DNA of 39,993 nucleotides from an uncultured Atribacterota bacterium (GCA_964567215.1 CAZMLS010000005.1:1-39993); one strand, 5' to 3'; numbered from the stretch's first letter, positions 2,091 to 16,389 are shown. Notes: generated by a model not told the origin, from the sequence alone. Program-made: numbers and translations.

Positions 2091-2120
2091 TCTTTTCGTA
2101 TCAATAAAAAGAAAAGATTC

Positions 2121-2159
2121 AACCACAAAAGGGCGTATTTGATACGCCCTTTTGTGGTT
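2121..2159. terminator. Perfect 18-bp-arm hairpin between convergent hflC and the RNase H-fusion gene; likely a bidirectional intrinsic terminator
   Basis: aaccacaaaagggcgtat / ttg / atacgcccttttgtggtt. The T-rich run is on the minus-strand side (revcomp of 2101-2120 = gaatcttttctttttattga). ttattt follows on the plus side. Confidence 0.75.
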
Positions 2160-2375
2160 ATTATTTGCTAATATGCTAATCATCAATTTCCTAAAGTATT
2201 TATCTGCTAATTCCAATCATAATTTCTATAATTTTATGATTCCACAATTAATTTTGTAATTCTGCAATTTGAATAATGTTAAGATTATTAAACTGGACGT
2301 TGTTTCCTTTAAATTCTTCCTAACTATTTCTTCGCACCATGTGTGATAATCAATACTTTCCTCACCTTTTATTAA

Positions 2376-4028
2376 TTAATATCCTAACTCGGTATTTACT
2401 TGATTTTCCGGTTCCTCTCCGCAATACACTTTCACGATATTATTAAAAACCTCTTTAATACTTTCTTCAAATGCTTTATCGCTATAACCTGCGGTATGCG
2501 GACTCATTATGATGTTCTTTAATTTTTGAAAATCGTATTTACCCGGCAATATTTTACTTTTTTCTTTGCTTGGATATTGATACCAGGCATCAATTGCTGC
2601 TCCTGCCAAATCATTGTTTTTTAAAGCTTCGTACAGATCATTTTCGTTAATTACACTACCCCGGGAAATATTTATAAGATATTTTCCATTCATTAACTGC
2701 AGTTCTTTTTTTGTAATCATTCCTTTTGTTTCTTCCGTTAAAGGGACAGAAACAACGAGAAAATCTGATTTTTTTATTACCTTTCTCAAATCTTTATTTT
2801 CTCCAAGAAACTCCAATATTTTCTTCTTTTTCAAATCTGTTTTATTTACTTTTCTTTTTATGGCAAATATTTTTATACCTAAAGCATACCCTATTTTTGC
2901 AATCTCCCACCCAATGGAACCTAATCCTATAATTCCCATATTTTTCCCGTGAAGTTGAATGCTAGGTTCCCGTGTAGAAAAACCATGCCATACTCCTTTT
3001 CTTAAATCATTGTCATTGCTTACAATATTTTTAGCCAAAGCAAGCATAAGCGCTATAGCGTGTTCTGCAACCGCATGTTTATTGGCATGAACATTACATA
3101 AACAAACATTCCGTCGATTTCTTAATAAATTAAAATCAATTTTATCAACACCGGTAAAAGGAACCTGGATCAATTTCAATATTTTTGCTTTTTCAAAGGT
3201 ATCTTCATTTTTTAAGTTTCCGATAATAACTTCCACTTCCGGAATGTATTTTTTAATATCCATCTCGTCATTTTTGTTCAGACTGATGAATTCAAGATTT
3301 AAATTGGTTTTTTTATTTAGTTCTGAAAACATTTTTATCCAAACTTGAGGCTTTACCATTTTACTTAAAATCAATATTTTCATTTTACGATTGTTCTTTG
3401 ATTTAATTTTTTTATTTTCAACCTTTTTTAAAAATTCTTTTATTGCGATTATATGTTTACAATCAATTTTTAATTTCTTTGCCTTATTTTTAAAATCAAG
3501 ACAATCGCATTTTAAAAGGTTTAAATCTACTCTATGTACATTTTCTGTTTCAAGATTTTTCACCGAGTAACAATTTTTTTCTTTTTTAACAATAAGTTCT
3601 TTTACCTTTGCTTTTCTTTTTCTAACTTCTTCCTTTAGTACCGCTTCCTTTGCTAAACCATCTGCAATTGAATTATTATCCCTGCTTTCCCAAATAAAAA
3701 ATATCTTCCCTTTAATCTTTTCACGTAATTTTTGAACTTTTATAAAAAGGGGTAGTATCTTTTTGTCTTTTACTTTATATTGTCCGTTTAACTGTTTTAC
3801 TACTAATTGGCTATCACAATATGCTGCTATTCTATCTACTCTTACATCCTTTATCTCCTCCAATCCTCGAATCAAAGCCCTATATTCAGCAATGTTATTT
3901 GTTCCGTGTCCAATATATTCGCTGATTTTTTTTACCAATACTTTATCTTTGTATATAACAATACCAATTCCCATACTTCCCGGATTCGGATAGCATGATC
4001 CATCCACTCTCATTAAAATATCAGACAT
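2376..4028 (-). CDS. Three-domain fusion protein: RNase HI-like (aa ~1-135), SWIM zinc finger (aa ~150-200) and a full-length D-isomer-specific 2-hydroxyacid dehydrogenase (aa ~216-550)
   Basis: RNase H DEDD set: D9 (RVDGS), E48 (IAEYRAL), D72 (YCDSQ), D123 (IADGLAKEA). SWIM CxCx13CxH: C174-D-C176...C190-K-H192. Dehydrogenase: GxGxxG at G368-G373 (GIIGLGSIG), R456 (NISRG), H511 (SPHTAG). Lys-rich linkers separate the domains. The ATG overlaps the stop of the upstream LOG-like gene (ATGTCTGA). Confidence 0.8.
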   Translation of the reverse strand: MSDILMRVDGSCYPNPGSMGIGIVIYKDKVLVKKISEYIGHGTNNIAEYRALIRGLEEIKDVRVDRIAAYCDSQLVVKQLNGQYKVKDKKILPLFIKVQKLREKIKGKIFFIWESRDNNSIADGLAKEAVLKEEVRKRKAKVKELIVKKEKNCYSVKNLETENVHRVDLNLLKCDCLDFKNKAKKLKIDCKHIIAIKEFLKKVENKKIKSKNNRKMKILILSKMVKPQVWIKMFSELNKKTNLNLEFISLNKNDEMDIKKYIPEVEVIIGNLKNEDTFEKAKILKLIQVPFTGVDKIDFNLLRNRRNVCLCNVHANKHAVAEHAIALMLALAKNIVSNDNDLRKGVWHGFSTREPSIQLHGKNMGIIGLGSIGWEIAKIGYALGIKIFAIKRKVNKTDLKKKKILEFLGENKDLRKVIKKSDFLVVSVPLTEETKGMITKKELQLMNGKYLINISRGSVINENDLYEALKNNDLAGAAIDAWYQYPSKEKSKILPGKYDFQKLKNIIMSPHTAGYSDKAFEESIKEVFNNIVKVYCGEEPENQVNTELGY

Positions 4029-4563
4029 AGTCTTTCATTTCCTTATTATTTTTTTTATTTAAAAGATTTTTTATCAATACGATTACTTCTTCCGGCTTTT
4101 TTACATAAATTAATTGTCCATCTTCTGTATATTTTTTAAACAATGTCCCTAAGTCAAAATTTAATGAAATAACTTTTTTTCCAATATTTAAAGCCAGGGC
4201 GATTTCCGAAATAGTCCCGGTTTTGCCGGGAAGAGCTACGACCACTTCACTGGTTTGAACATTGATATAATTTCGAGCAAAACCAATTCCTGTTAGTATT
4301 GGAATATCAATATATTCTGAAGCCCATGATGAATTATCTCCCGGTAAAATACCTATGGTTAGCCCGTCACCTTCTTTCGCCCCTCGAGCTGAAGCCTCCA
4401 TCATTCCTGAAGCCCTTCCTCCATTAAGCAAAATCCAACCTTCTTTTGCGATTAAATAGCCCAGTTTACGCGCAATCTCATAATCAATGAGGTCATCTAT
4501 TTCTCCTCCGCCCATAACGCCTATAATAATTTTTCTAATTTTAATCCCCTTCTTTCTTCTCAA
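4021..4563 (-). CDS. LOG / TIGR00725-family (SLOG-fold, lysine-decarboxylase-like) protein
   Basis: Rossmann-like N-terminus IIIGVMGGG, GGRASGMMEA, and PGKTGTISE (a variant of the LOG PGGxGTxxE motif). The start is uncertain: the ORF-track start is TTG at 4563 with no clear SD. The first ATG would delete the first beta-strand. Confidence 0.7.
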   Translation of the reverse strand: MRRKKGIKIRKIIIGVMGGGEIDDLIDYEIARKLGYLIAKEGWILLNGGRASGMMEASARGAKEGDGLTIGILPGDNSSWASEYIDIPILTGIGFARNYINVQTSEVVVALPGKTGTISEIALALNIGKKVISLNFDLGTLFKKYTEDGQLIYVKKPEEVIVLIKNLLNKKNNKEMKDYV

Positions 4564-4634: not shown

Positions 4635-4643
4635 TGTTATAAT
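4635..4643 (+). promoter_or_regulatory. Candidate extended -10 promoter element (TGtTATAAT) for the 242-aa ORF
   Basis: tgttataat read at 4635-4643, with tttaca 9 nt upstream. It would give a ~110-nt leader containing the small hairpin ctcaag-aaaaaa-cttgag. Confidence 0.3.
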
Positions 4644-4763
4644 TATAAATCAAAATATAGCTTTTGTCATATTAAAGAAAGAAAGTATCGAGTATTACCT
4701 CAAGAAAAAACTTGAGAAAAAATCTTAAAAATGTTTTTTTAAGAAACATGAGAGAAGAATAAT

Positions 4764-5492
4764 ATGGATGAACGAATAAAATACGCTTTTGAATATACTA
4801 AAATATTAAGAAGACCAAAACAGTTAATATCTACTTTCGGCTCTTCTAACATTCATTTTTATGTATTAACTGAACCGGTTTATTCTGAATTTACAAAAGA
4901 CAAAAAAGAAACCGTTGTAAGGGAAGGAAAAGTAAGTTGGTATCAACCGAAACTATTTATGCCGAATTATATGTTCCGAATTGAAGGATTTAGCAAAGAA
5001 GCAATGAAAACTTTTCAAAAATTGTCAAATGAATATCCTGACCTGGCAGGAATTTTATATAAATTTAAAATAAACAAAGAACTGGATGAAATGAATTTTG
5101 TTTCCGATACTTTATTAAATGTAGCGGAAAACATAAATCAGCAGATAGAGAAAAAAGGTGATTCTCTGAGTGCAATCATTAGAGGTGCTGCGGGTCTATG
5201 GGATGTATCTTTAACAAAATTTATTTTAGACATGATGACAAGAAGCGCTTATCTCGCTCAAATTCCTGATTTTGCTCAAAAAGGTTTTTTGGGATTGAAC
5301 CAAGCCGGTCAAACCGTCATTGCAAAAGATAAAAATGGTATCCCTTTGATAGCAAAAGAAGAAATTGAAAAACTATTCAATCTGGTAAAAAAGGGCGAAT
5401 TAGAACCTGTTAGATTAAAGGAAGAATTGGATAAATGGGGATTATTTCCACAATACCAGGATAGATTTTTCCACCTTTTTAAGAAAAAATAA
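4764..5492 (+). CDS. Hypothetical protein (242 aa); no motif recognised
   Basis: Long uninterrupted ORF in AT-rich DNA with coding-like composition. It is divergent from the LOG/RNase H pair. I could identify no catalytic, TM or signal motif. Confidence 0.6.
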   Translation: MDERIKYAFEYTKILRRPKQLISTFGSSNIHFYVLTEPVYSEFTKDKKETVVREGKVSWYQPKLFMPNYMFRIEGFSKEAMKTFQKLSNEYPDLAGILYKFKINKELDEMNFVSDTLLNVAENINQQIEKKGDSLSAIIRGAAGLWDVSLTKFILDMMTRSAYLAQIPDFAQKGFLGLNQAGQTVIAKDKNGIPLIAKEEIEKLFNLVKKGELEPVRLKEELDKWGLFPQYQDRFFHLFKKK

Positions 5493-6955: not shown

Positions 6956-8413
6956 CTAAAAATCTTTAGATAATCTCTTCTTTAACGCATCAAATACAAA
7001 ATCCGGTTTGGCTCTTCCTCTGGTATAACGCATAACCTGTCCGATTAGGAAATTCAAAGCTTTTTCTTTTCCTTCATTAAAATCCTTTACAGATTTAGGA
7101 TTCTCTTTAATTACTTTATCAATTATTTCAATCAATTCGCTTTCATTGGTAATCTGAGTAATCCCGTTTTCTTTTACGATTTGAGATGCGTGACTCCCGG
7201 TCTTATACATCTTTTCAAAGACTTCTTTAGCCATTTTGCCGCTAATTACACCCTTATCTATCAATTTTAGCAATTCTACTAAATTTTCAGGTGAAATAGG
7301 AGATTTTTCTATATCAATTTTTTCTTCATTTAGAAATCGCATTAGCTCACCCATTATCCAATTACTTAATATTTTGCTATTTTTATAAATTAATGCAGCA
7401 TTTTCGTAATAATCACCTACGGCTTTGCTGGAAGTCAAAATATCAGCATCATATTCAGGAATTTTATAAACATCTATAAAACGCTTTTTTCTTGCTTCCG
7501 GAAGTTCCGGAAGATTATTTCTTATTTTTTCAATCATCTTACCATCAATCTTTAGAGGGGGAAGGTCAGGTTCGGGAAAATAACGATAATCATGTGCCTC
7601 TTCTTTGCTTCTCATGGAAATTGTAACATTTCTTTCTTCATCCCAACGCCTTGTTTCCTGTATTACTTTTTCACCGTCTTCCAATATTTTCATCTGTCTC
7701 TTTACTTCGTATTCCAGAGCCTTTTTTACCGATCTGAACGAATTCATATTTTTAACTTCCGTTTTGGTACCTAATTTTCCAGTTTTCGAATCACAAATAG
7801 AAATATTGGCATCACAGCGCATGGAACCTTCTTCCATATTTCCGTCACATACCCCGAGATGTTGAACCATATTTCTTAACATCGTTAAAAATACCCTGGC
7901 TTCTTCCGGAGAACGAAAATCCGGTTCAGTTACTATTTCCGCCAATGGTATACCGCAACGATTATAATCCACCAAAGAATAAGTTGATACAGAATCGTCT
8001 TTTTCTTCATGAATTAACTTACCCGCATCTTCTTCAATATGTATCCTGGTAATACCGATTCTGCGTTTTTCTTTACTGCTCTCCCCGGGTATATCAATAT
8101 AACCGTTTATATTTAAAGGAATATCAAATTGCGAGATCTGATAAGCTTTAGGTGAATCAGGATAAAAGTAGTTTTTTCGATGAAATTTACTTATTTCATT
8201 CACTTTACAATTTAAAGCTAAACCTGTTTTTACTGCATATTCTATCACTTCTCGATTCAAAACAGGAAGTGCCCCCGGCAATCCGAGACATACTGGACAT
8301 GTATTGGTATTAGGTTCTTTTCCAATATAATCAGTACTGCAATTACAAAACATTTTTGTGTCTGTCATTAATTGAATATGCACTTCCAAACCTATTACTA
8401 CTTTTTTTTTCAT
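6956..8413 (-). CDS. gatB: Asp-tRNA(Asn)/Glu-tRNA(Gln) amidotransferase subunit B
   Basis: [35 protein letters not shown] and a C-terminal YqeY-like tail. 4-nt overlap with gatA (ATGA). Confidence 0.95.
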
Positions 8414-9900
8414 TCTACTTCCTCCTTAACTTCGGGCAAGTTTATCTCCGGTTTTCTCTTTTTAAGTTGGCTGTTTTGTTCAAAGTTATATGCTGCTTTA
8501 ATAATTGTTTTTTCGTTAAAAGGTTTGCCGATAATTTGTAAGCCAATGGGTAAATTATTTTTACTATATCCACAATTTATCGAAATTGCCGGTATTCCTG
8601 CCAGGTTAACAGGAAGAGTATATATATCAGATAAGTACATGGTTAAAGGATCATTGATTTTCTCGTTTAATTTAAAAGCAGGTGTTGGCGCAGTTGGTGT
8701 AATCAGCACATCATATTTTTTAAACGCTCTATCAAAATCCTGTTTAATTAAAGTACGAACCTTCTGTGCCTTTAAATAATAATCATCATAATACCCCGAG
8801 CTCAAGGCATAAGTACCCAACATAATTCTCCTTTTTACTTCCTCACCAAAACCTTCGCTCCGTGTTTTTCTGTAAAGAGAAGATAGATCTCTGTAATTTT
8901 TAGCTCTATAGCCATATTGTACACCATCATAACGCGCCAAATTAGAACTTGCTTCAGCTGTAGCAATTAGATAGTAAGTCGGCAAAGAATACTTTGTATG
9001 AGAAAGGGAAATTTCTTCAATTTCCGCACCCATTTTTTCATAAAGTTTTAATGCCTTATCGATTGCTAATTTTACTTCCTTATCAAGTCCTTCAATAAAA
9101 TACTCACGAGGGATTCCTATTTTTAACCCTCTAATTCCTTCTCTACACGATTCTAAATAATCAGGTACTTCCAGGTTTGCAGAAGTAGAATCTTTTTTAT
9201 CTTGTCCACAGATAACATTCATCATCATAGCGCTGTCTTCAACGTTTTTAGTCAGCGGTCCTATTTGATCCAAAGAGGATGCATAAGCAACTAAGCCATA
9301 TCTCGATACTCTTCCATAAGTTGGTTTTAATCCAACGATTCCACAAAATGACGCCGGCTGTCTAACAGAACCCCCTGTGTCAGTTCCCAGGGCAACATGT
9401 GTTTCATCAGCGGCGACAGCAGCTGCAGAACCGCCGCTCGAGCCTCCCGGAACTCTTTCCAAATCCCAGGGATTATGTGTTGTAAAAAAGGCAGAGTTCT
9501 CTGTTGAAGAACCCATTGCAAATTCATCCATATTCGCTTTTCCAATTATTATGGCTCCTGCTTTTTTTAATGCATTAATAATTGTCGCATTATAGGGAGG
9601 AATGAATCCTTTAAGAATCTTTGAACCACAAGTTGTTTCCATACCCTTGACTGCCAATATATCCTTCACTGTTAGTGATACACCCGCTAAAAAAGGAATC
9701 TTTTCTCCTTTTTTTATTTTTTCGTCAATATTTTTTGCTTGTTTTAATGCATTTTCTCGATCTATGTATAAAAAAGCTTTAATTTTATTTTCTATTCGAT
9801 CTATCTGTGTAAAAATATCCTTAGTTACTTCAGAAACAGATACTTTTTTTTCTTTTACTAAATTAGTAATTTCGCGAGCAGTTAATAGATTTAAGTTCAA
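8410..9900 (-). CDS. gatA: Glu-tRNA(Gln) amidotransferase subunit A
   Basis: Amidase signature [13 protein letters not shown] and [19 protein letters not shown] start at 9900-9898, with GGAGG (9913-9909) 8 nt upstream. Confidence 0.93.
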
Positions 9901-9919
9901 TTATATTTCCTCCTCTAAT

Positions 9920-9954
9920 TAGTCGTTAGTGAATAGTCAATAGTCGTTAGTATT
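9920..9954. repeat. Five tandem 7-mers TAGTSRW (tagtcgt tagtgaa tagtcaa tagtcgt tagtatt)
   Basis: Read directly. A near-identical array in the same orientation is at 32008-32042. Confidence 0.85.
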
Positions 9955-10242
9955 AAATACAAATTGCAAAATTATTCGCTTCCTTAGTTACCCAGTTACC
10001 TTGTTTAACAGTTGACTAATCAATTTTAGTCGTAAATTTCAAATACGAGTTCTTAAGTTGTAAGAGGGAATTAGTTGATACAGTAAAACAAAATAATCTT
10101 AATTCTTCAAGCGGTTAACCGTTAAACTGGCTAACCGCTTTCACGAGATACAAGATGGGAATTTGGTTCCTGATTTCTGATTCCTTCTTCCTCTTCACAC
10201 AAATCATACGTAATATTAATTAAGTTTCTAGCATCCTTTTTA

Positions 10243-10297
10243 TTCTAATTTTGAGCTTTGAATTATGGTTTTTCACTTTTCGTTTTTTTCGATTCCC
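10243..10297 (-). repeat. Copy of a dispersed ~40-55 bp A-rich element (CGAAAAAC...ATAATTYAAA..TCAAAAT), inverted relative to the other two copies
   Basis: The revcomp reads gggaatcgaaaaaaacgaaaagtgaaaaaccataattcaaagctcaaaattagaat. Compare 25011-25049 and 38296-38335. Confidence 0.65.
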
Positions 10298-10310
10298 TAT
10301 CATTTTTCTA

Positions 10311-10619
10311 TTACATTATTTTTGGAACTTTAAAATAACCCTTTTTATTATTATTAGACATAGAAATTACTGTTTTTTGAGATAAAGAAGGCTCGACTTT
10401 ATCTTCATTGAGTAAATTCGGCATATCTATAATATATGCAGTCGGTTGAACATTTTTTGTATCCAATTCATTAAGTTTTTTAAAATAATCCAAAATGGTA
10501 TTTAACTGGTTGGTATATTGTTTTTTATCTTCTTTGTTGAGCTCTAAATTTGCCAATTGAGCTACATGTTCTACTTCTTTTGGTGTAATTATTTTATCAA
10601 TCATATTATTTTCCTCCAT
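10311..10619 (-). CDS. gatC: Glu-tRNA(Gln) amidotransferase subunit C
   Basis: ITPKEVEHVAQLANLELNKED is typical of the GatC N-terminus. About 100 aa. The start lies 1 nt after the ligA stop. Confidence 0.85.
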   Translation of the reverse strand: MEENNMIDKIITPKEVEHVAQLANLELNKEDKKQYTNQLNTILDYFKKLNELDTKNVQPTAYIIDMPNLLNEDKVEPSLSQKTVISMSNNNKKGYFKVPKIM

Positions 10620-10620
10620 A

Positions 10621-12678
<2,058 letters not shown>

Positions 12679-14235: not shown

Positions 14236-16389
14236 TTACACTTTCTCCAATGGAGCATAGTTCATTGATAATTTTTTTAAACCTGCTTTTTCAAAATCTA
14301 CTGTTAAAAAAACATCGTTTTCCGTTTCTTTTTTCTCCAGGATAATCCCGATTCCCCAATCTGCATGCCTGACTTGATCTCCTTTCGATACTTCTATAAT
14401 CTTCTCTCTCTTGTTAAATACCGGAATTTCCTCTATTTTATTAACATTGACTTTTTCCATGAGACATGCAGGAATTTCTTTATAGAACCGTGATATGCTA
14501 TTAAACAAGGTATTCCCGTTCAAACTTCTTCTCCAGGCATAAGTCAAATATAATCTTTCCATTGCACGGGTCATTCCAACATAACATAATCTCCTTTCTT
14601 CTTCTAATTCTTCATTACTGTGCACTGAACGTGCATGAGGGAAAATTCCCTCTTCGAACCCGGTAATAAATACAATGGGAAATTCTAAACCTTTGGCACT
14701 ATGTAAGGTCATTACAGTAACCACGTCTTCCTGTTTTTTATATAAATCAATATCACTTATTAACGCAACATATTCTAAAAACGCTCTCAGAGATTTATCT
14801 TCTCTGTTTTCTTCAAAATCTTGAATTGCAAAAACTAATTCTTTTATATTTTCAATTTTAGCTTCCGCTTTAAAATCATCTTCTTTTTTTAATTCCTTCT
14901 TATAGTCTATTTTTTTCAACAATATTATTAATAGTTCACTACCGGTCATTTTATCTCTTTCTTGATTTAATTCATCAATTAAAGAAGTAAATCTTTTTAT
15001 TTTCAATTGTCTATCGCTCGACAGTTTAGAGTCCTGTTTTGTTAAAAAATAGATTAAAGCCTGGTGATAATTCAAGTTATTTTCTTTTGCCAGGTACTCA
15101 ATTTTGGATAAAGTTACTTTACCTATTCCTAATTTTTCATTACTGAGAATTCTTAAAAAACTTACGCCATCTTTTTGGTCATAGATAAACCGCAAGTAGG
15201 CCAAGATATCCTTTATCTCTTTTCTCTCATAAAATCTTAAGCCTCCGACTACTTTAAATGGAATTCCCTGTTTATTAAATATTTCTTCAAAAGCTCTGGA
15301 TTGAGCATTGGTACGATATAAAATTGAAAAATCTTTAAAAGTCTTACCTTTTTCTTTCATTAATTTTAATATTTCCTGACCAACAAATTCTGCTTCATCA
15401 AGAGCGCTTGCTGACTCATAACATTTTATTTTTTCGCCTTCTTTTTTATCAGTCCATAAATCTTTGTCTTTGCGGTTTCTATTATGCCTAATTAATTTTG
15501 TTGCTCCCTCTAAAATAACTTTTGTTGAACGATAATTCTGTTCCAGTTTTATCAAATTGCTATCGGGGTAATCTTCTTCAAATTTCATAATATTACTTAA
15601 ATCTGCACCCCTGAACTTGTATATACTTTGATCGGGATCACCGACAACAAATAAATTATGATATTTACTTGAAAGCAGTCTTATAAAAGAATATTGAGCC
15701 CTATTGATATCCTGGTATTCGTCTACTAATACATGCATAAACTTGTTTTGGTATTTTTCTAGAATAGCGGGTTTCTCTTTAAATATTTTAACGGTTAACA
15801 ATATCAAGTCTCCAAAATCAAGAGCATTGTTTCTTTTCAACTCCTGCTGATATAATCTATAAATTTTTTCCACAATTTTTTTAAAAAAACCAAGTGCATT
15901 GTATTCAAAAGCTTCTACATCTTCCAAATTATTTTTTGCTTTATCAATAATTGAAGAAAATAAATTTGGACTATATCTTTTTGTTCCCAGATCCAGTTGT
16001 TTAATACACTTTCTAATCAAACTTAACTGGTCTCCTTTATCATATATAATAAAATTGTTATCATATCCTAAAGCTTCTATCTCATATCTTAATATCCGGG
16101 CACAAATTGAATGAAATGTTCCCATCCATAATCCTTTTATTTTTATATCACTATTTATGTCTTGATATAAATTATCAATTCTTGTCTTCATTTCATTGGC
16201 TGCTTTATTTGTAAAGGTTACTGCCAGAATATTGCCTGGATTTATCTTTTCTTCATGAATAAGATAGGCAACACGGTGAGTCAACACCTTTGTCTTTCCG
16301 CTTCCCGCTCCGGCAATGACCAATGTTGGATTATTTTTAGATTTTACTGCTTCCAACTGCCTGTTGTTAAGGTTATCCAGTATTTTCAT
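14236..16389 (-). CDS. pcrA: ATP-dependent DNA helicase PcrA/UvrD family
   Basis: Walker A AGAGSGKT, motif II VDEYQD, TLHSAKGLEFPIVFI, RRLCYVGMTRA. Confidence 0.95.
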   Translation of the reverse strand: MKILDNLNNRQLEAVKSKNNPTLVIAGAGSGKTKVLTHRVAYLIHEEKINPGNILAVTFTNKAANEMKTRIDNLYQDINSDIKIKGLWMGTFHSICARILRYEIEALGYDNNFIIYDKGDQLSLIRKCIKQLDLGTKRYSPNLFSSIIDKAKNNLEDVEAFEYNALGFFKKIVEKIYRLYQQELKRNNALDFGDLILLTVKIFKEKPAILEKYQNKFMHVLVDEYQDINRAQYSFIRLLSSKYHNLFVVGDPDQSIYKFRGADLSNIMKFEEDYPDSNLIKLEQNYRSTKVILEGATKLIRHNRNRKDKDLWTDKKEGEKIKCYESASALDEAEFVGQEILKLMKEKGKTFKDFSILYRTNAQSRAFEEIFNKQGIPFKVVGGLRFYERKEIKDILAYLRFIYDQKDGVSFLRILSNEKLGIGKVTLSKIEYLAKENNLNYHQALIYFLTKQDSKLSSDRQLKIKRFTSLIDELNQERDKMTGSELLIILLKKIDYKKELKKEDDFKAEAKIENIKELVFAIQDFEENREDKSLRAFLEYVALISDIDLYKKQEDVVTVMTLHSAKGLEFPIVFITGFEEGIFPHARSVHSNEELEEERRLCYVGMTRAMERLYLTYAWRRSLNGNTLFNSISRFYKEIPACLMEKVNVNKIEEIPVFNKREKIIEVSKGDQVRHADWGIGIILEKKETENDVFLTVDFEKAGLKKLSMNYAPLEKV

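Follow-up and report, generated by a model that had tools for sequence, protein, structure and literature searches.

Introduction

RNase HI clears away R-loops and primers. Mycobacteria require RNase H1-type activity for viability (PMC5224475), and Rv2228c, or RnhC, is a fusion of RNase HI to CobC (PMC7466739, PMC5224475, bioRxiv 10.1101/2022.11.09.515703). Here, we analyze a 39,993-nucleotide (nt) stretch of DNA from an uncultured Atribacterota bacterium (GCA_964567215.1 CAZMLS010000005.1:1-39993; the whole stretch is referred to as the window), in which a single open reading frame (ORF) of 550 amino acids (aa) joins RNase HI, a putative SWIM zinc finger, and a module of the D-2-hydroxyacid dehydrogenase (2HADH) family, and is preceded by a gene for a LOG-like protein. 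The fusion resembles Rv2228c/MSMEG_4305 (RnhC) in having the same RNase HI subtype (Protein Data Bank (PDB) entry 3hst, template modeling (TM) score 0.91, 32–35% identity), in joining RNase HI to a C-terminal small-molecule metabolic enzyme, and in being found in one bacterial lineage only (PMC7466739). It differs in its C-terminal module, which is a CobC-type acid (histidine) phosphatase in RnhC and a 2HADH here; by this feature the fusion is not an RnhC, and it is matched by the NCBIfam model PRK07238 only partially, at residues 4–144. The fusion also has an intercalated SWIM, a rigidly conserved length and linker, and a co-operonic LOG-like gene, while RnhC has neither SWIM nor a LOG-like neighbor. 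RnhC and the Atribacterota fusion arose independently.

The individual modules have described relatives as well. Sto-RNase HI, LC11-RNase H1, and the Halobacterium RNase HI (RVT_3) share with the N-terminal domain the fold, the DEDD carboxylates, the position of Arg116, and a size of ~135 aa, but are single-domain enzymes, to which the fusion adds SWIM and a 335-aa oxidoreductase. Standalone RNase HI–SWIM proteins have the same domain order, but lack the dehydrogenase and occur in short-ORF or PDDEXK contexts. The nearest solved 2HADHs, the archaeal glyoxylate reductases 5aov, 2dbq, and 6bii and the P. horikoshii phosphoglycerate dehydrogenase 1wwk, resemble the C-terminal module in overall length, in containing both Pfam domains and GxGxxG, and in having the catalytic Arg and His; the fusion departs from them in having Tyr for Glu in D-x-W-Y-x-Y-P, a 7–8-residue insert, and K391-R392 in place of Asp. 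Molybdenum cofactor (Moco) carrier proteins (2iz5, 6y01) align with the LOG-like protein from end to end, but the gene for the latter is found with RNase H and dehydrogenase in Atribacterota, a setting unconnected with Moco enzymes. A literature search found no paper on an RNase H–2HADH fusion, in agreement with the first-pass annotation of the window, which did not recognize the pairing as a described pathway. In databases, the fusion is labeled “reverse transcriptase-like”, “NAD(P)-dependent oxidoreductase”, or “phosphoglycerate dehydrogenase-like enzyme/ribonuclease HI”.

A three-module fusion protein of JS1-class Atribacterota

The three-module ORF lies at the coordinates that the first-pass annotation gave, and the domain assignments of that annotation, four in all, were upheld. 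The two genes and their parts lie on the minus strand of the window:

2376..4028 (−): fusion gene, RNase HI–SWIM–2HADH-family module, 550 aa, ATG start
3630..4028 (−): RNase HI domain, aa 1–133, of Sto-RNase HI/LC11 type by Pfam, residue invariance, AlphaFold2 (AF2), and Foldseek
3384..3629 (−): linker helix and putative SWIM zinc finger, aa 134–215; SWIM core aa 165–198 = nt 3435–3536
2379..3383 (−): 2HADH-family module, aa 216–550; NAD(P)-binding domain aa 325–513 = nt 2490–3056
4021..4563 (−): LOG-like gene, SLOG cluster 4/TIGR00725, Moco-carrier-protein-like; stop TGA 4023–4021
4021..4028 (−): 8-nt overlap ATGTCTGA of the LOG-like stop and the fusion ATG
4546..4553 (−): Shine–Dalgarno (SD)-like element AGAAGGGG, 6 nt 5′ of the ATT codon 4539–4537

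Among 5.8 billion clustered proteins, more than 120 full-length homologues of the fusion were found (544–558 aa, 60–99% identity), whose organism names, where given, are almost all Atribacterota or Caldatribacteriota. At the species level (one genome per GTDB species), the full-length fusion was found in ~38 Atribacterota species at 47–68% identity, and the named hosts all belong to the class Ca. Phoenicimicrobiia (JS1), e.g., Ca. Sediminicultor and Ca. Stramentimicrobium. The length of the fusion is nearly constant across the class. During an exhaustive HMMER pass over 1.84 billion representatives, the architecture was seen in only two clusters, P0027 and the contig-truncated P0123, every other top match being a free-standing dehydrogenase of ~330 aa. 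Alignment of 23 homologues (60–85% identity) revealed that D9, E48, D72, D123, R116, C174, C176, C190, and H192 of the N-terminal part are invariant, as are G368, G370, G373, R456, and H511 of the dehydrogenase module.

The ORF is equally intact in independently assembled DNA. Logan contigs from runs X2 and X4 span 2300–4606/4650 and cross the domain junctions with substitutions only and no indels, and public, independent salt-lake metagenome assemblies cover the whole stretch, again with substitutions only. Thus, the frameshift or stop that the first-pass annotation proposed to look for did not appear. That an assembly or sequencing error, i.e., a frameshift or a chimera, united separate genes has next to no probability: the ORF is unbroken in JGI, ENA, NCBI, and Logan assemblies (more than 120 protein clusters), in 38 species-level genomes, and, free of indels, in contigs assembled independently from several runs; nothing was found in favor of such an origin, and we consider it ruled out. 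Judged by the number of homologues, the nearly fixed length, the invariance of catalytic, zinc-, and NAD-binding residues, and the lack of indels in independent assemblies, the fusion is genuine, as first supposed, and under selection.

The organism of the window was found again in at least 24 runs. Population variants are present at 3654–3657, 2874, 4201–4207, and 4510 in salt-lake runs X2, X4, and X17, and not in X1; all are substitutions, one 3-base cluster being located in the RNase H/SWIM linker region.

The same families as separate neighbors in Thermofilaceae

Scanning of metagenome contigs with the motif of the dehydrogenase subfamily yielded 80 loci: 19 Atribacterota fusions, 58 lone dehydrogenases, and three loci (L124, L125, and L151) with separate genes. 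The latter are high-G+C contigs, placed by the names of homologues in Thermofilaceae (Thermoproteota), in which RNase HI (163 aa) and, after it, a WWSYP-type dehydrogenase are each encoded by a gene of their own. In L125 and L151, a TIGR00725 gene is located ~0.4 kb upstream, in the order and direction seen in Atribacterota. The RNase HI–dehydrogenase adjacency was found again in the Thermofilaceae genome L152, where, as in L124, the pair stands alone. The archaeal copies are 43% (LOG-like), 37% (RNase H), and 34–35% (dehydrogenase) identical to the window proteins, and a recent transfer is excluded, because the archaeal and Atribacterota copies are too diverged. By a rough estimate, the probability that the three families cluster in two unrelated lineages by chance is of the order of 1e-3 or less. 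Since families that are fused in Atribacterota are separate neighbors in Thermofilaceae (a Rosetta-stone pattern), we argue for a functional link between them.

No dehydrogenase or LOG-like gene was found near the RNase HI loci of Micrarchaeota, Ignicoccus, Hadesarchaea, and other Thermoprotei, and the archaeal dehydrogenase and LOG-like genes look like accessory insertions beside rnhA in one subclade. The Thermofilaceae loci also contain a gene for a 116-aa predicted coiled-coil protein with no Pfam match (L125:1871-2221, L124:3553-4167, and L152:3663-4013), which overlaps the RNase HI start by ~10–13 nt and is preceded by an HTH_5/S_layer_C-type regulator. This protein may be an additional partner of the archaeal RNase HI.

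The RNase HI and SWIM modules

At residues 4–129, the fusion matched RVT_3 (E 1.8e-15, 57.4 bits) and RNase_H (E 1.8e-10, 41.6 bits), both over the Pfam cut-off. The four DEDD carboxylates, on which the first-pass annotation had based an apparently active RNase HI, proved invariant not only in the 23 homologues but also in 27 sequences that include archaeal RNases HI. An AF2 model of the N-terminal 215 residues, obtained with a diverse alignment, had a predicted local distance difference test (pLDDT) score of 94.7 and a predicted TM score (pTM) of 0.85. In Foldseek comparisons, its RNase H part superimposed on solved enzymes with TM (target) scores of 0.83–0.92 and root-mean-square deviations of 1.4–2.5 Å; the matches were LC11-RNase H1 with hybrid (4h8k), the Rv2228c N-domain (3hst), Halobacterium RNase H1 (4e19), and Sulfolobus tokodaii RNase HI (3aly, 2ehg). 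As modeled, the N-terminal domain is a type 1 RNase H of the Sto-RNase HI/LC11 subtype, and it is predicted to cleave hybrids. Arg116 is located where enzymes of this subtype, such as Sto-RNase HI, have an Arg. The nearest plain RNases HI found were from Micrarchaeota (42–52% identity), a ranking that is indicative only, because the scan pattern came from the N-terminus.

The SWIM ligand signature, C174-x-C176-x13-C190-x-H192, is present, and the ligands named by the first-pass annotation stand on their invariance, although the Pfam score is low (see below). The signature aligns with the same motif in Pfam-SWIM-positive homologues, whose precomputed SWIM matches are marked “weak”. In the N-terminal AF2 model, residues 143–215 form three strands and helices bearing CxC...CxH with pLDDT >90; this region packs onto the RNase H domain, to which it is joined by a long helix (residues 116–142). 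Foldseek matched the RNase H part of the model only, and no structural match to the SWIM fold was obtained. We regard SWIM as a putative zinc finger. Standalone RNase HI–SWIM proteins P0326, P0358, P0370, and P0384 (213–225 aa) have a Pfam SWIM match and align with the fusion through the zinc motif VDL..C.C.D[FY]...CKHI.A at 28–35% identity; the RNase HI–SWIM two-domain unit is not new by itself. Standalone RNase HI–SWIM proteins of 218 and 225 aa are encoded at L156:3742-4398 and L158:402-1079, surrounded by runs of short co-directional ORFs without a Pfam match or directly followed by a PDDEXK_1 nuclease gene. Since the contigs that encode standalone RNase HI–SWIM hold small unannotated ORFs or a PDDEXK nuclease, they may derive from an archaeal virus or mobile element.

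The dehydrogenase module

The C-terminal module matched 2-Hacid_dh (PF00389; E 1.1e-15, 57.9 bits) and 2-Hacid_dh_C (PF02826; E 1.1e-44, 152.4 bits) at residues 227–545. It begins with MKILIL, which aligns with the N-termini of free-standing dehydrogenases, bearing out the earlier view that this is an ancestral N-terminus; two homologues have Ile in place of Met216, so that an internal start is not required. None of the NCBIfam equivalogs (SerA, GhrB, formate dehydrogenase (FDH), LdhD, and others) was reached, the best score being ~151 bits against cut-offs of 261–455. Formate dehydrogenase, the label in one source, was rejected (NF005750, 116 against a cut-off of 329; the motif differs).

The module contains G368xG370xxG373, K391-R392, R456, D480-A-W-Y-Q-Y485-P, and H511. 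Standalone relatives (~330 aa, 35–49% identity) share with it D-x-W-[YW]-x-Y-P, the Arg and the His, the 7–8-residue insert after the motif, and a C-terminal GY. Wherever HMMER aligned the module with a solved enzyme, Tyr485 was opposite the catalytic Glu of DVFEEEP (ldvfeeep versus idawyqyp), and Tyr takes the place of Glu throughout the standalone subfamily; there was no solved structure from the Tyr-for-Glu subfamily among the PDB matches. The first-pass assignment to D-2-hydroxyacid dehydrogenases therefore holds for GxGxxG, Arg456, and His511, all invariant, but not for the complete Arg-Glu-His triad. The triad is conserved in almost all 2HADH members; by way of exception, FDHs have Gln for Glu, SERA type IIIK has Lys for His and no Glu, and some members of subfamily X4 lack both His and Glu (PMC6303947). 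By its sequence, the module is best placed in the 2HADH superfamily, as a member whose active site is atypical and retains the Arg and the His. K391-R392 sit where NAD-specific enzymes have the Asp that specifies NADH (PMC6303947), so that the module probably prefers NADP(H). Genes neighboring standalone dehydrogenases in eight long contigs were unrelated housekeeping genes and gave no functional hint.

The LOG-like partner

The upstream protein matched PF18306 (SLOG cluster 4; E 7.8e-50, 168.8 bits versus a cut-off of 26.3) and TIGR00725 (120 bits versus 106.9). Its nearest solved relatives are Moco carriers, namely, cyanobacterial 6y01 (E 4.4e-38) and the Chlamydomonas Moco carrier protein (MCP) 2iz5 (E 3.4e-31), followed by Thermotoga TM1055 (1rcu). 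A true LOG enzyme was considered and rejected: TIGR00730 scored 47.6 versus 96.35, PF03641 17.2 versus 27, and PDB LOGs were matched only at E ~1e-7. PGKTGTISE in the protein is similar to PGGxGTxxE, the motif of LOG enzymes. Of the original LOG/TIGR00725-like designation, the second half is supported by the TIGR00725 score, while the protein is nearer to Moco carriers than to true LOG enzymes. By these scores, it belongs to the Moco-carrier/TIGR00725 clade.

The survey of neighborhoods that the first-pass annotation suggested located the LOG-like gene directly before the fusion in 33 of the 37 Atribacterota species loci with enough upstream sequence, in addition to the separate genes of Thermofilaceae. 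At the junction, the genes overlap by 8 nt (16 loci) or 7 nt (two loci), or are separated by a 2–38-nt gap, in which case the fusion has its own GAGG-type SD (15 loci). The tight coupling suggested earlier is thus seen in the window and adjacency is the rule, but the 8-nt overlap is confined to a ~60%-identity clade, and the partner is sometimes lost. The loss is complete in L014 and L018 (upstream of 4001). In L015 (3880-4000), an internal deletion has left ~30 LOG-like codons, the 5′ codons IRKIIIGVMGGG being joined to the 3′ tail, and in L016 (3350-3935) a two-gene cassette stands in place of the LOG-like gene. By eye, the first gene of this cassette is like the DUF6364 protein found beside LOG in L003, and the second is RelE-like. 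The LOG-like gene was likewise lost in metagenome loci L083 and L143. Since it is lost in four of the 37 species loci with the fusion retained, the LOG-like gene is not obligatory.

The LOG-like ORF lies where it was first placed, but its start is probably different. In 39 distinct Atribacterota LOG 5′ regions (L001-L041, L070, and L076-L088 equivalents), the codon at the start position is ATT (20), ATC (13), ATA (five), or ATG (one); an SD-like purine run precedes it in all 39, and the conserved peptide R-K-I-I-I-G-V-M-G-G follows it. No ATG, GTG, or TTG is present between this codon and the in-frame upstream stop in 29 of the 38 non-ATG loci. The 6y01 and 2iz5 alignments begin at residues 9–10 of the 180-aa ORF. 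The internal ATG picked by gene callers, which yields a 164-aa protein, has no SD, and starting there would drop the first strand of the fold. Since this is the codon that follows an SD and from which the MCP alignments begin, while the internal ATG lacks an SD, translation probably starts at ATT 4539–4537 (172 aa) and not at TTG 4563 (180 aa).

Genomic context

Two further features flank the gene pair:

4642..4670 (−): promoter-like site, ATGACA-17 nt-TATAAT, 11/12 consensus matches
2120..2160 (either strand): strong terminator-like bidirectional hairpin, perfect 18–19-bp stem with 8 G-C pairs

The promoter-like site precedes the LOG-like gene and is located in the intergenic region between this gene and a divergent gene for a 242-aa protein. 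It is suggestive as a consensus match alone, shuffled versions of the region having given more such sites than the region itself. The hairpin is located where the fusion gene and hflC converge, between their 3′ ends, has T-runs on both strands, and is a candidate bidirectional terminator.

Gene order is kept across the class: ligA, gatC, gatA, gatB, (a major facilitator superfamily (MFS) gene), the divergent 242-aa gene, the LOG-like gene, and the fusion, followed by the convergent hflC, hflK, and then fba, pfk, and dnaE. The divergence of the LOG-like/fusion pair tracks that of the neighboring housekeeping genes, and inheritance therefore appears vertical; the locus is core, syntenic, and vertically inherited, and is not a defense island.

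The fusion is located in a replication/repair-rich block, which includes gatB/gatA/gatC, NAD-dependent DNA ligase, and a PcrA/UvrD helicase (6956–12654 and 14236–16389), and in related contigs dnaE is ~5 kb from the fusion on the opposite side. The closeness of the fusion to replication/repair genes is suggestive, though none adjoins it. The 242-aa gene (4764–5492, plus strand), divergent from the LOG-like gene, occupies the same position in nearly every Atribacterota locus that covers this flank, with 55–88% identity among loci. Its product had no Pfam, PADLOC, or PDB match, and on this comparison represents an orphan family confined to the Atribacterota lineage.

Proposed function and alternative explanations

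We propose that, in JS1-class Atribacterota, the two genes form a housekeeping operon. The fusion product would be a multidomain type 1 RNase H, whose N-terminal 215 residues form an RNase HI–SWIM unit: in RNA/DNA hybrids (primers, R-loops), RNase HI would cleave the RNA strand via the DEDD two-metal site, and the SWIM finger would provide an extra nucleic-acid grip, offsetting the absence of a basic protrusion in this RNase H subtype. The remaining 335 residues, at the C-terminus, would constitute a complete, NADP(H)-preferring 2HADH-family oxidoreductase from the widespread free-standing Tyr-for-Glu subfamily. Since the 2HADH family is normally dimeric, this module would dimerize the nuclease. 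If, as we infer, it is still active, cross-talk between the modules may follow, the fusion tying the amount of RNase H, and perhaps its activity, to the dehydrogenase. The LOG-like protein would be made from the same mRNA, from a weak AUU/AUC/AUA start, and most likely binds a nucleotide- or pterin-type ligand, acting as a helpful yet dispensable accessory. With the archaeal neighborhood as the chief argument, we lean, by a small measure, toward the fusion being a functionally meaningful bifunctional enzyme. It is doubtful that the three families, LOG-like (TIGR00725), Sto-type RNase HI, and Tyr-for-Glu 2HADH, make up an unrecognized functional module in which the removal of hybrids is gated by, or coupled to, NAD(P)H/2-oxoacid status and a nucleotide-derived ligand.

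Several observations weigh against a functionally meaningful fusion. The Pfam SWIM match (PF04434, residues 165–198) has 17.6 bits, under the gathering score of 19.6. The fusion is intact in L014, L015, L016, L018, L083, and L143 despite the loss or replacement of the LOG-like gene. Neither a dehydrogenase nor a LOG-like gene is beside the RNase H gene in L160, a more distant Thermofilaceae genome, and no RNase H or LOG-like gene is near the 58 standalone dehydrogenases among the 80 loci, so that the functional link rests on two lineages. The Arg-Glu-His triad is incomplete, R456 and H511 being present and Glu missing; with the triad near-universal in 2HADHs (PMC6303947), the Glu-less module could be a binding or sensor domain instead of an enzyme. 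Finally, the domains of MSMEG_4305/Rv2228c (RNase HI–CobC) were concluded to be functionally dissociated in vivo and fixed by drift (PMC7466739). By the same route, RNase HI–SWIM and an orphan NADP-dependent 2-oxoacid reductase, neighbors in the JS1 ancestor, could have been joined by loss of a stop codon and remained independent, the LOG-like gene being merely next in the operon. MKILIL, aligned with standalone N-termini, is the signature of such a plain end-to-end join, the standalone dehydrogenases have no conserved gene context, and the LOG-like gene is dispensable. A full-length AF2 model (pTM 0.53) likewise lacked confident SWIM–dehydrogenase packing, although with its shallow alignment it was mediocre (pLDDT 74, SWIM region <50) and was not used for inter-domain claims. 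We nevertheless consider a neutral fusion rather unlikely, because the three families cluster again as separate genes in Thermofilaceae, where they are just 34–44% identical to the Atribacterota copies and, by the rough estimate above, unlikely to meet by chance, and because length (549–550 aa) and linker register are kept over ~50% divergence, whereas the MSMEG_4305 linker is highly variable (PMC7466739).

If the dehydrogenase were catalytically dead, it could act as a CtBP-like, NAD(P)H-sensing dimerization switch for RNase H, with the SLOG protein sensing a nucleotide-derived ligand. Such gating would agree with the replacement of the catalytic Glu in every member, with the oligomerization of CtBP, a 2HADH-family protein, upon NAD(H) binding (PMC6303947), with the description of SLOG proteins as nucleotide/ligand sensors (PMC6459960), and with the co-occurrence of the three families in two lineages. 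CtBP is similar by analogy only, as a 2HADH fold recruited to a nucleic-acid-related function with NAD(H)-driven oligomerization (PMC6303947); it is eukaryotic, keeps the Arg-Glu-His triad, and ranked below glyoxylate reductases in the profile search. The glycine-rich loop is invariant, as are Arg456 and His511, in the fusion as well as in hundreds of standalone relatives, for which reason the module looks like a member of an enzyme family, and FDHs, which also lack the Glu, are active (PMC6303947); a dead switch is accordingly improbable. Even less can be said for an anti-phage or conflict system with a SLOG sensor that switches on a nuclease effector; a conflict role had been mentioned as speculation in the first-pass annotation. 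SLOG domains do occur in nucleotide-signal conflict systems, e.g., Thoeris ThsA, and standalone RNase HI–SWIM is found on contigs that look viral or mobile. However, none of the three proteins had a PADLOC match, and, in contrast to ThsA-type SLOG systems, the position of the locus is conserved among housekeeping genes: it is single and core, syntenic class-wide between gatCAB/ligA and hflKC/fba/pfk/dnaE, and apparently vertically inherited. Furthermore, the SLOG partner is lost while the putative effector stays, and it belongs with the MCP/TIGR00725 clade and not with the effector-fused sensor clade. Given the PADLOC result and the core, syntenic position, we regard a defense function as extremely improbable.

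Significance

For annotation, the conserved AUU/AUC/AUA start means that gene callers shorten the LOG-like protein by ~8 residues. A globally abundant, uncultured subsurface class appears to make RNase HI only within a three-module, oxidoreductase-joined protein. If the fusion is neutral, it would be a second independent example of the Rv2228c kind, useful for studying how fusions get fixed. If the link between the modules is functional, the fusion would offer a simple example, in bacteria, of RNA/DNA-hybrid processing under metabolic or redox control, as well as the first functional handle on the TIGR00725/MCP-like SLOG proteins and on the Tyr-for-Glu 2HADH subfamily.

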